A stretch of DNA of 64,000 nucleotides from a virus. Both the position numbers and the translations under genes were made by a program. The stretch lies in IMG/VR virus record IMGVR_UViG_3300028844_005756, positions 1 to 64,000 of that record; one strand, given 5' to 3'. The notes under the pieces are model-generated. The model made no database searches. It had not been told where the DNA came from and saw only the letters and a program-made list of their open reading frames with translations. Positions 34,135-37,150 of the stretch are shown here, one piece after another (positions within the stretch are counted from its first letter, which is position 1; every line of letters begins with the position of its first letter).

Positions 34135-34210
34135 TCCTGATTAGCTCAGTTGGTAGAGCAAATGACTGTTAATCATTGGGTCGCTGGTTCGAGTCCAGCA
34201 TCAGGAGCCA
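34135..34210 (+). tRNA. tRNA-Asn(GTT)
   Basis: Canonical 76-nt cloverleaf, TCCTGAT/ATCAGGA acceptor, CT-GTT-AA loop, encoded CCA. Confidence 0.97.
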
Positions 34211-34227
34211 AACCTTATGGAGTAATT

Positions 34228-34413
34228 ATGGCTAATGCTAAACAAAAGAAAGTTGTACGTAAAATGCTTTCGCAAATTGAAGTGATGAAAAAGAAAGCAA
34301 CTGAAAAAAAGGAATCTGCTGAAGTTATTGCAAGAAAAGAACAAAATATGTTGAATTATTATAAAGATAAATTCGGAAAAAGGTTTGATGAATTTGCTGA
34401 TATGGTAAGCTAA
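34228..34413 (+). CDS. small basic hypothetical protein
   Basis: ATG after GGAG, downstream of tRNA-Asn. Confidence 0.65.
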   Translation: MANAKQKKVVRKMLSQIEVMKKKATEKKESAEVIARKEQNMLNYYKDKFGKRFDEFADMVS

Positions 34414-34421
34414 AGAGATAT

Positions 34422-34508
34422 GCGGGGTGTTCCATTCACATGTCTTATATACATGCGGCAAAACAGAGTGGCGGTGCCAATGAAGTTCAATTCTTCCACC
34501 CCGTACCA
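34422..34508 (+). tRNA. atypical D-armless tRNA-like gene, anticodon TAT (Ile)
   Basis: GCGGGGTG/CACCCCGT acceptor + ACCA; CATGT-CTTATAT-ACATG anticodon arm; long variable arm; GAAG-TTCAATT-CTTC T arm. Confidence 0.7.
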
Positions 34509-34540
34509 CATTTAAAAAAAATATATTTATTATGTAATTA

Positions 34541-34921
34541 ATGGAAAATAATACAAATAATGAAGATTTAAAGTTCAATGAACCTTTTCTTGAAAAAAAA
34601 GAAGTAACTGCAATTTCATATGATAGTTCCGTAGTAGATGAAATTGTTGAGAATGAACCGCAAATCACAAAAATTGTAACTCCTGTTGATGATTGGACCT
34701 ATTGGGCAAAATGGATTGGTAATGCGTTTCTCATTGTTGGTACATTACTTACTAATTTAGCATTACTTCCAATGAACTATATTTTTAGTTTGATTGGTTT
34801 ATTTTTATGGGCTATTGTTGCAGCACAATGGAATGACAGAAGTTTAGTTGTTTTAAATGTTTTTCTATTAGGTACAGTTGCAATGACTTTAGCCCAGCAT
34901 ATTAAAGAATATTTTTTATAA
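34541..34921 (+). CDS. membrane protein (DUF6552-like)
   Basis: W..KW....P.N......W..V...W.DR.L.VLN. Confidence 0.65.
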   Translation: MENNTNNEDLKFNEPFLEKKEVTAISYDSSVVDEIVENEPQITKIVTPVDDWTYWAKWIGNAFLIVGTLLTNLALLPMNYIFSLIGLFLWAIVAAQWNDRSLVVLNVFLLGTVAMTLAQHIKEYFL

Positions 34922-34928
34922 GGTAATT

Positions 34929-35086
<158 letters not shown>

Positions 35087-36618: not shown

Positions 36619-36643
36619 TGGGGAGATTTTTCTCCCCATTTTT
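36619..36643 (+). terminator. rho-independent terminator
   Basis: TGGGGAGA-tttt-TCTCCCCA-TTTTT. Confidence 0.75.
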
Positions 36644-36655
36644 CAAAAAAATCCC

Positions 36656-36683
36656 TTGACATTTCCCCACAATCTGCTATACT
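36656..36683 (+). promoter_or_regulatory. early promoter
   Basis: TTGACA-16-TATACT with TG. Confidence 0.7.
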
Positions 36684-36685
36684 TT

Positions 36686-36762
36686 GGCCTGTTAGTTCAG
36701 TTGGTTAGAACGCTTGCCTGTCACGCAAGAGGTCACCGGTTCAAGTCCGGTACAGGTCGCCA
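36686..36762 (+). tRNA. tRNA-Asp(GTC)
   Basis: Canonical cloverleaf, CT-GTC-AC loop, GCCA end. Confidence 0.96.
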
Positions 36763-37092: not shown

Positions 37093-37150
37093 GGATATTC
37101 CTGGTAAATCCAGGAATATCCCTTGACATTTTCCCTCAGTCTGCTATACT
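37093..37150 (+). promoter_or_regulatory. 12-bp hairpin followed by an early promoter
   Basis: GGATATTCCTGG-taaat-CCAGGAATATCC; TTGACA-16-TATACT. Confidence 0.7.

Follow-up and report, generated by a model that had tools for sequence, protein, structure and literature searches.

A tRNA-type gene family of marine phages with a three-way-junction core in place of the D arm

An uncultured marine phage carries a tRNA-type gene of 87 nt, here called X-tRNA-UAU, whose RNA lacks a D hairpin and folds around a three-way junction instead of a cloverleaf. There is very little doubt that this gene belongs to a conserved, phage-specific family, of which 19 distinct sequences of 86-90 nt have been found at about 50 loci in viral or metagenome contigs. 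Judged from its sequence, X-tRNA-UAU is probably, though with considerable reserve, a working tRNA which reads the isoleucine codon AUA during infection with this rewired core.

The window, i.e. the whole stretch of 64,000 nucleotides that was analysed, belongs to an 85.8-kb IMG/VR virus record with a G+C content of 30% and a completeness of 34% (CheckV). Phage genes of the record include an endolysin, a helicase, an SbcC-like nuclease and a peptidase (PHROGs), and related phages have baseplate genes in common with Pelagibacter and Methylophilales myoviruses. A mitochondrial origin does not fit such a phage contig, on which endolysin, helicase and SbcC-like genes accompany bacterial-type tRNAs. 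X-tRNA-UAU is flanked by an ORF ending at 34413 and an ORF starting at 34541, and shares its strand with three neighbouring tRNA genes:

34135-34210, + strand: ordinary tRNA-Asn(GUU), found by ARAGORN and Rfam (71.5 bits)
34422-34508, + strand: X-tRNA-UAU, the whole rewired tRNA gene, 87 nt with encoded CCA (102.9 bits with covariance model R1)
35010-35086, + strand: tRNA-Arg(UCU), 58 bits with Rfam, acceptor pairs 2-4 broken
36686-36762, + strand: ordinary tRNA-Asp(GUC), found by ARAGORN and Rfam

The neighbouring tRNA-Arg(UCU) is itself unusual. Its acceptor strands (5' GAAACUG and 3' CAGGCGC) leave three non-pairs at positions 2-4, which is why ARAGORN misses it with default settings, and the tRNA-Arg(UCU) of relatives shows GCGYCUR at the same place with an intact acceptor stem; the gene of the window may be a damaged copy or a recombination junction. 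Further downstream, two near-consensus promoter copies (TTGACA, 16 nt, TG, TATACT; 11 of 12 matches) are found on the + strand at 36656-36683 and 37123-37150, directly upstream of tRNA-Asp and of the helicase gene, respectively. Both match one element of the related phage contig L005, and a strong terminator-like hairpin (36619-36638) lies ahead of the first copy.

An earlier note, based on this single stretch of DNA, had described an 8-bp acceptor stem, a 4-bp T stem, an ACCA end, a perfect anticodon arm with a UAU anticodon, a GGCA/TGCC stem (34457-34460 with 34475-34478) and 9 nt where the D arm should be, and each of these elements is indeed present in the sequence. The minimum free energy fold of the single sequence (-23.9 kcal/mol) is the fold of that note. 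As its z-score is merely -1.53, the single sequence alone is not beyond chance, and it is the comparative data which settle the fold. On an ungapped alignment of 12 sequences, RNAalifold returned four helices, P1 to P4, which are listed below with the unpaired segments joining them; the proportions of paired cells and of changing pairs refer to an alignment of 17 distinct sequences.

34422-34429, + strand: P1 5' strand, acceptor stem of 8 bp with 34497-34504; 100% of cells paired, 5/8 pairs change on both sides
34430-34431, + strand: two-nucleotide connector UU, in the place of canonical nucleotides 8-9; 2 nt in every member
34432-34437, + strand: P2 5' strand CCAUUC, pairing with 34466-34471; 99% of cells paired, 4/6 pairs change on both sides
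34439-34455, + strand: P3, anticodon arm with a 5-bp stem and the 7-nt loop CUUAUAU; 100% of cells paired, 4/5 pairs change on both sides
34456-34465, + strand: A-rich bulge of 10 nt, CGGCAAAACA, on the 3' side between P3 and P2; 9-12 nt in all members
34457-34459, + strand: candidate pseudoknot strand GGC, with 34476-34478 (GCC); 96% of cells pairable
34466-34471, + strand: P2 3' strand GAGUGG, as for the P2 5' strand
34472-34481, + strand: linker of 10 nt, CGGUGCCAAU, between P2 and the T stem; 9-11 nt across members
34482-34496, + strand: P4, T arm with the 4-bp stem GAAG/CUUC and the loop UUCAAUU; 100% of cells paired, 3/4 pairs change on both sides
34497-34504, + strand: P1 3' strand, as for the P1 5' strand
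34505-34508, + strand: discriminator A73 and encoded CCA; ACCA in all UAU members

From the covarying helices P1-P4 and the invariant connectors, it follows that the RNA is a three-way junction, with the standard 12-bp acceptor/T branch, split 8/4 and formed by stacking of the acceptor stem on the T stem, and a long, interrupted anticodon-side helix made of 6 bp, one nucleotide and 5 bp. Every member has a P1 of 8 bp, a connector of 2 nt, a P2 of 6 bp, one nucleotide, a P3 of 5 bp with a 7-nt loop and a P4 of 4 bp, so that the geometry of the helices remains constant across very different member sequences. P2, the long-range helix which encloses the anticodon arm, is joined to P3 on the 5' side by a single A (34438) and reads CCGGCC/GGCCGG, CCUUCC/GGGAGG, CCCUCA/UGGGGG or CCCGGC/GCCGGG elsewhere in the family. 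The nine nucleotides at 34430-34438 do stand in place of the D arm and form no D hairpin, as had been claimed, but they are not unpaired, six of them being engaged in P2 with what had been taken for the variable loop.

The proposed long variable-arm hairpin did not survive the comparison, since 10 of 12 sequences cannot form the fourth GGCA/UGCC pair and since the stem crosses P2, which covaries. Owing to this crossing, GGC/GCC could form only as a small pseudoknot. Column pair 36:59 is A-U in 10 sequences and G-C in 6, and pair 38:57 is C-G in 12 and U.G in 4; as this amounts to about one independent compensatory event, the 3-bp pseudoknot is kept as tentative.

Several unpaired positions are also conserved. 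The P3 loop contains U33, the anticodon UAU at 34446-34448 and A37, and of the 17 aligned sequences the 16 with UAU all keep C32, U33, this anticodon and A37. The T loop is closed by an invariant G-C pair and reads UUCAAYU in all UAU members seen. Linker positions 2-3 are GG in all 19 distinct members, UCU variants included, a count to be read with the fact that most search patterns required GG and one pattern alone left it free. Likewise, the AAACA motif of the bulge is invariant in the 12 sequences found first, which had been retrieved with a search pattern containing this motif; the UCU variants likewise have an A-rich bulge. The ACCA end common to the UAU members was required or filtered for by every search pattern that found them, and the ordinary tRNAs of these phages whose 3' ends were read (Asn, Asp, Arg, Leu and Met) encode CCA as well. 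The connector at 34430-34431 is mostly UU, a few members having UC or AU instead. At the end of the acceptor stem, the pair 34422/34504 is G.U in 15 of the 17 sequences, A-U in one and G-C in one; this weak 1:72 pair is conserved.

In the commonest subtypes, those with a GCUGU/GCAGU anticodon stem (L006, L017 and others), the anticodon stem contains two G.U pairs, and single-sequence folding prefers a more stable, shifted hairpin in which CAGC or CAGU, right 3' of the anticodon stem, replaces the 3' strand of the stem and the loop is no longer presented in a tRNA-like manner. This predicted hairpin could represent an alternative conformer. It is not the conserved register, as it is impossible in the subtype of the window.

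Support for the helices comes from substitutions which preserve pairing. Within the 17-sequence alignment, 99.7% of paired cells pair, with 1 unpaired cell out of 391, and both partners vary in 16 of the 23 pairs. Covariation scores 0.46, a value which none of 500 shuffles attains (shuffles give 0.13) and which drops to 0.11 or less when the partners are slid. This alignment, which took in 17 of the 19 distinct relatives, was fitted to the model, yet it is almost gap-free. Random decay, against which the earlier note had argued from the intact pairing, is contradicted by relatives that keep the odd fold through compensatory changes. Close relatives with a normal D arm, which would have indicated a simple deletion, were looked for as well, and the relatives prove to have no normal D arm.

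Standard tools for tRNA annotation do not recognize this RNA. ARAGORN, which the earlier note had put forward as a check, gives no tRNA at 34422-34508 with default settings, and the Rfam tRNA model RF00005 has no match at E <= 10, even with the search limited to 121 nt. In this 121-nt search the best Rfam match is tRNA-Sec (RF01852), at 20.1 bits against a gathering score of 47. With a lowered threshold (-ps), ARAGORN proposes a 96-nt tRNA-Ile(UAU) starting at 34413; this candidate was rejected, having acceptor mismatches and relying on an upstream flank which is not conserved in relatives. Among the hallmarks of a cloverleaf tRNA, the D-arm hairpin (a 3-4 bp stem and a D loop with G18-G19) is missing from X-tRNA-UAU. 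Present are the acceptor with discriminator and CCA, a 5-bp/7-nt anticodon arm with U33 and a purine at position 37, and a T loop of the form UUCRANY closed by G-C, on an acceptor/T branch split 8/4, not 7/5.

Relatives were found in phages and their contigs. One homologue lies on the phage contig L005, the helicase of which shows 83% identity, and occupies the equivalent position of the tRNA cluster there; one ENA marine contig is identical to the window. Further members were collected with degenerate patterns, derived from conserved unpaired bases, over IMG/VR and JGI/ENA metagenome contigs. They are not assembly copies of one sequence, because their flanks differ. Blastn searches found no homologue in GenBank phages, an exact 3'-half pattern had no match in viral contigs, and a search for relatives with the 472-aa neighbour protein returned nothing. 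No family member was found among 185,579 prokaryote species genomes (596 Gb), in which 12 pattern matches are attributed to chance: none of the 8 checked by pairing folds, and the other 4 obtain at most 22 bits with the model or nothing, family members scoring 48-115 bits. By comparison, 11 of 11 motif matches in viral contigs fold, as opposed to 0 of the 8 prokaryote matches so checked. A structural descriptor run over 2.58 Mb of collected sequence retrieved family members only. Collectively, the earlier proposal of an undescribed D-armless 8/4 architecture is sustained insofar as the tRNA-type RNA gene is conserved, has an 8/4 branch and lacks a D hairpin; the literature searched contained no earlier description of the family, an absence which is not proof.

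A UCU anticodon (Arg, AGA) is carried by RNAs of this architecture at L079:2205-2290 (-), L106:7509-7594 (-) and L162:1663-1748 (-). In these versions every stem differs in sequence and remains paired through compensatory changes; the L162 copy has no encoded CCA. A motif search free of the anticodon revealed no specificities besides UAU and UCU. In L079 and L106, the UCU copy closes an array of 18 tRNAs, and ordinary tRNA-Arg is absent from the contig sequence there; in L079 it lies 5 nt after tRNA-Cys, with no ordinary tRNA-Arg within 13.3 kb. None of the 42 instances checked departs from the tRNA strand. Most instances sit among ordinary phage tRNAs (Arg-UCU, Leu-UAA, Met-CAU, Asn, Asp, Ser and Thr), and one subtype has no ordinary tRNA within 5-12 kb of contig sequence. 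Three related phage records, 20-68% complete, contain ordinary tRNAs for Asn, Asp, Arg-UCU, Gly, Met, Thr and Leu-UAA only and thus no ordinary tRNA-Ile(UAU); with phage records of 34-68% completeness by CheckV, the rest of these genomes could carry one. Two specificities, both commonly supplied by phages and located in tRNA arrays, argue for decoding over a single-purpose decoy.

Other RNA genes on these contigs deserve mention in their own right. The L079 array includes two unusually long tRNAs of 86 nt, a tRNA-Met(CAU) with an apparent long variable arm (L079:3223-3308 (-)) and a tRNA-Gly(UCC) (L079:3760-3845 (-)). A tmRNA with the tag peptide ANDNVENYNYALAA (ARAGORN) is located at L123:2297-2663 (-), on a contig with the 90-nt X-tRNA-UAU subtype. 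In the record of L005, a 146-kb related phage, ARAGORN reports at L059:199-274 (+) a tRNA-Gly with the anticodon ACC (A34), which is unusual for bacteria-type systems.

In the phage, AUA represents 39% of Ile codons (31 per 1000 codons), while AGA has a share of 63% among Arg codons and UUA one of 52% among Leu codons. Aligned with relatives, AUA positions are matched by Ile at a frequency of 0.46, compared with 0.52 for AUU and 0.58 for AUC, and AUA exchanges chiefly with AUU; there is hence no sign that AUA has been reassigned. With regard to expression, exact contigs of this phage in four marine metatranscriptomes cover 34303-34453 and 34484-34671 at a depth of 2-4, leaving 34454-34483 uncovered. 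Such contigs could reflect read-through transcription, DNA carry-over being another possibility, and they do not give the ends of the RNA. High depth was seen solely on the ordinary tRNA-Asn and tRNA-Arg genes, where it stems from the tRNAs of other organisms.

On the favoured reading, X-tRNA-UAU would be part of a common transcript with the adjacent tRNA genes, from which RNase P would free its 5' end at G1 (usually preceded by a U), the 3' end being trimmed to the encoded CCA. P2 (6 bp), the single A and P3 (5 bp) would provide about 12 stacked layers, which approaches the anticodon-to-elbow length of an ordinary tRNA and suggests that an L-like shape is kept, and the invariant GG of the linker may replace G18-G19 as partner of the T loop. 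Charging would be performed by the host IleRS through the anticodon loop (UAU, A37) and A73, and delivery by EF-Tu through the 12-bp acceptor/T branch. AUA decoding would in this way be supplied without the lysidine-modified tRNA-Ile2 of the host, AUA being very frequent in this phage of 30% G+C; that AUA is limiting in the host is an assumption. Host enzymes would have to serve this RNA, as no phage-encoded class Ia aminoacyl-tRNA synthetase or CCA-adding enzyme was found in three partial phage records. The identity elements of E. coli IleRS include the D-arm pair U12-A23, and ArgRS normally needs A20 of the D loop. The U12-A23 pair cannot exist in X-tRNA, and this, like the need for A20, counts against the favoured reading. 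As for its origin, X-tRNA probably descends from an ordinary phage tRNA-Ile(UAU) gene. A type II tRNA is a possible alternative ancestor, the phage tRNA-Leu(UAA) being likewise 87 nt long and the best match of the model outside the family. One may guess that the core was rewired to escape host factors or nucleases which recognize the D arm.

The absence of the D arm and of a canonical elbow, which several synthetases use, also suits a stable tRNA-shaped RNA working outside decoding, for instance as a decoy or sponge for a tRNA-targeting defence (e.g., an anticodon nuclease), as an inhibitor of a tRNA enzyme or as a non-translational aminoacyl donor. We regard this as unlikely but as the main alternative, the more so as soil allo-tRNA(UAU) species with an 8/4 branch were inactive in E. 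coli translation and have been proposed to be linked to toxin-antitoxin systems (PMC5389517), and as the conserved terminal G.U pair is without explanation. For the decoy or aminoacyl donor suggested by the earlier note, codon data and the surroundings of the gene lean instead towards ordinary decoding. A decoy, however, would hardly require the complete 12-bp branch and the canonical T loop in combination with A73 and an encoded CCA, and UAU and UCU are anticodons which phages commonly supply as ordinary tRNAs. Moreover, in an array of 18 tRNAs the vacant place of tRNA-Arg is taken by the UCU form, and no toxin-antitoxin or defence genes were noticed beside X-tRNA-UAU (PHROGs).

Non-cognate charging by LeuRS or SerRS, by which AUA would be read in part as another amino acid, is improbable in our estimation. 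In favour of such a recoding or mistranslating tRNA, the extra region is similar to the variable arm of tRNA-Leu(UAA), a neighbouring phage gene and the strongest hit of the model outside the family at 23-25 bits; against it, AUA positions face Ile about as often as those of AUU and AUC, Ser is not in excess, and a small excess of Leu is explained by the single-base change ATA/TTA. Ser identity usually goes with G73. Here the discriminator is A73, no variable-arm hairpin exists, and the anticodon arm exactly matches the one found in ordinary phage tRNA-Ile(UAU), despite an 8/4 branch and a long extra region recalling the allo-tRNAs, which SerRS charges whatever their anticodon (PMC7609411). 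Least credible of all, and close to dismissal, is a chance fold, or a tRNA pseudogene decaying after deletion of the D arm and an insertion. The weak z-score of the single sequence, the damaged appearance of the neighbouring tRNA-Arg(UCU) in the same phage and the rejection of the element by standard tRNA finders are what it would explain, but 19 distinct sequences from about 50 contigs keep all helices and their exact lengths through compensatory changes, only one of the 391 cells is unpaired, and a version with a second anticodon exists.

The family matters because non-cloverleaf tRNAs were thought to be exclusive to mitochondria. Whether marine phages own a non-cloverleaf tRNA class, with an 8/4 branch and P2 in lieu of the D stem, which serves at least UAU/Ile and UCU/Arg on ordinary bacterial ribosomes, which would comprise the first natural armless tRNAs outside mitochondria and whose rewiring may evade host or phage factors acting on the D arm, is in our judgement evenly balanced. 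If true, a natural tRNA of another fold would be shown to be acceptable to RNase P, EF-Tu and the ribosomes of bacteria as well as to their IleRS or ArgRS. Since ARAGORN and Rfam both miss X-tRNA, phage tRNA repertoires and analyses of codon supply are incomplete, and an annotation blind spot is thus exposed. X-tRNA also offers a natural scaffold for orthogonal tRNA design and raises the idea that phages rewire tRNA cores in conflict with tRNA-targeting defences of the host.

Among known systems, the D-armless mitochondrial tRNAs come nearest in fold; in the acceptor branch the nearest are other 8/4 tRNAs, namely the allo-tRNAs and the tRNA-Ser and tRNA-His of this type in phages. Like X-tRNA, the mammalian mt-tRNA-Ser(AGY) and the nematode mt-tRNA-Ser(UCU) have no D hairpin, form a three-way junction with two connectors and possess an anticodon-side helix of more than 5 bp which makes up for the missing D stem (PMC7609411, PMC9427863). 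In contrast to them, X-tRNA is encoded by phages of bacteria, its CCA end is part of the gene, its T loop is fully canonical and its 12-bp 8/4 branch is rich in G+C; its extension is a separate 6-bp helix accompanied by a 10-nt bulge, a GG linker and a possible 3-bp pseudoknot.

The allo-tRNAs (Mukai et al., 2017, PMC5389517) share with X-tRNA the 8/4 branch and extra sequence between the anticodon and T arms. UAU is their commonest anticodon, and 8/4 tRNA-Ser and tRNA-His occur in phages (PMC5389517, PMC7609411). The kinship suggested by the earlier note holds for this branch but not for the rest of the molecule: compared by description, the long D stem of allo-tRNAs ends in a tetraloop and their V-arm hairpin confers Ser identity, whereas X-tRNA has neither of these hairpins and carries A73. 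They also differ in habitat, allo-tRNAs being found in soil Acidobacteria, Clostridia and Proteobacteria and X-tRNA in marine phages.

With the ordinary tRNA-Ile(UAU) of phages (L002, L004), X-tRNA-UAU shares its anticodon, an anticodon arm and flanks identical over about 22 nt, the same T loop and the role expected in AT-rich phages. The existence of these tRNAs contradicts, for phages, the earlier statement that UAU tRNAs are rare. They belong to unrelated phages and are ARAGORN-detectable 7/5 cloverleaves of 75-77 nt with a normal D arm and a 5-nt variable loop. The rank of tRNA-Sec (RF01852) as best Rfam match is explained by its long acceptor stem, 4-bp T stem and long extra region; it has a 6-bp D-stem hairpin and the anticodon UCA, whereas the 6-bp helix of X-tRNA is not a hairpin and its anticodon is UAU.

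According to a 2024 study, armless tRNAs do not occur outside mitochondria, and the tRNAs of all known bacteria are canonical (PMC11551756; also PMC7609411). The engineered D-armless "mini HisT" of that study is artificial, needs a pnp mutation for its stability in vivo and has no compensating 6-bp helix (PMC11551756). It has been shown with this engineered D-armless tRNA that E. coli HisRS, EF-Tu and the ribosome accept such a molecule without adaptation (PMC11551756).
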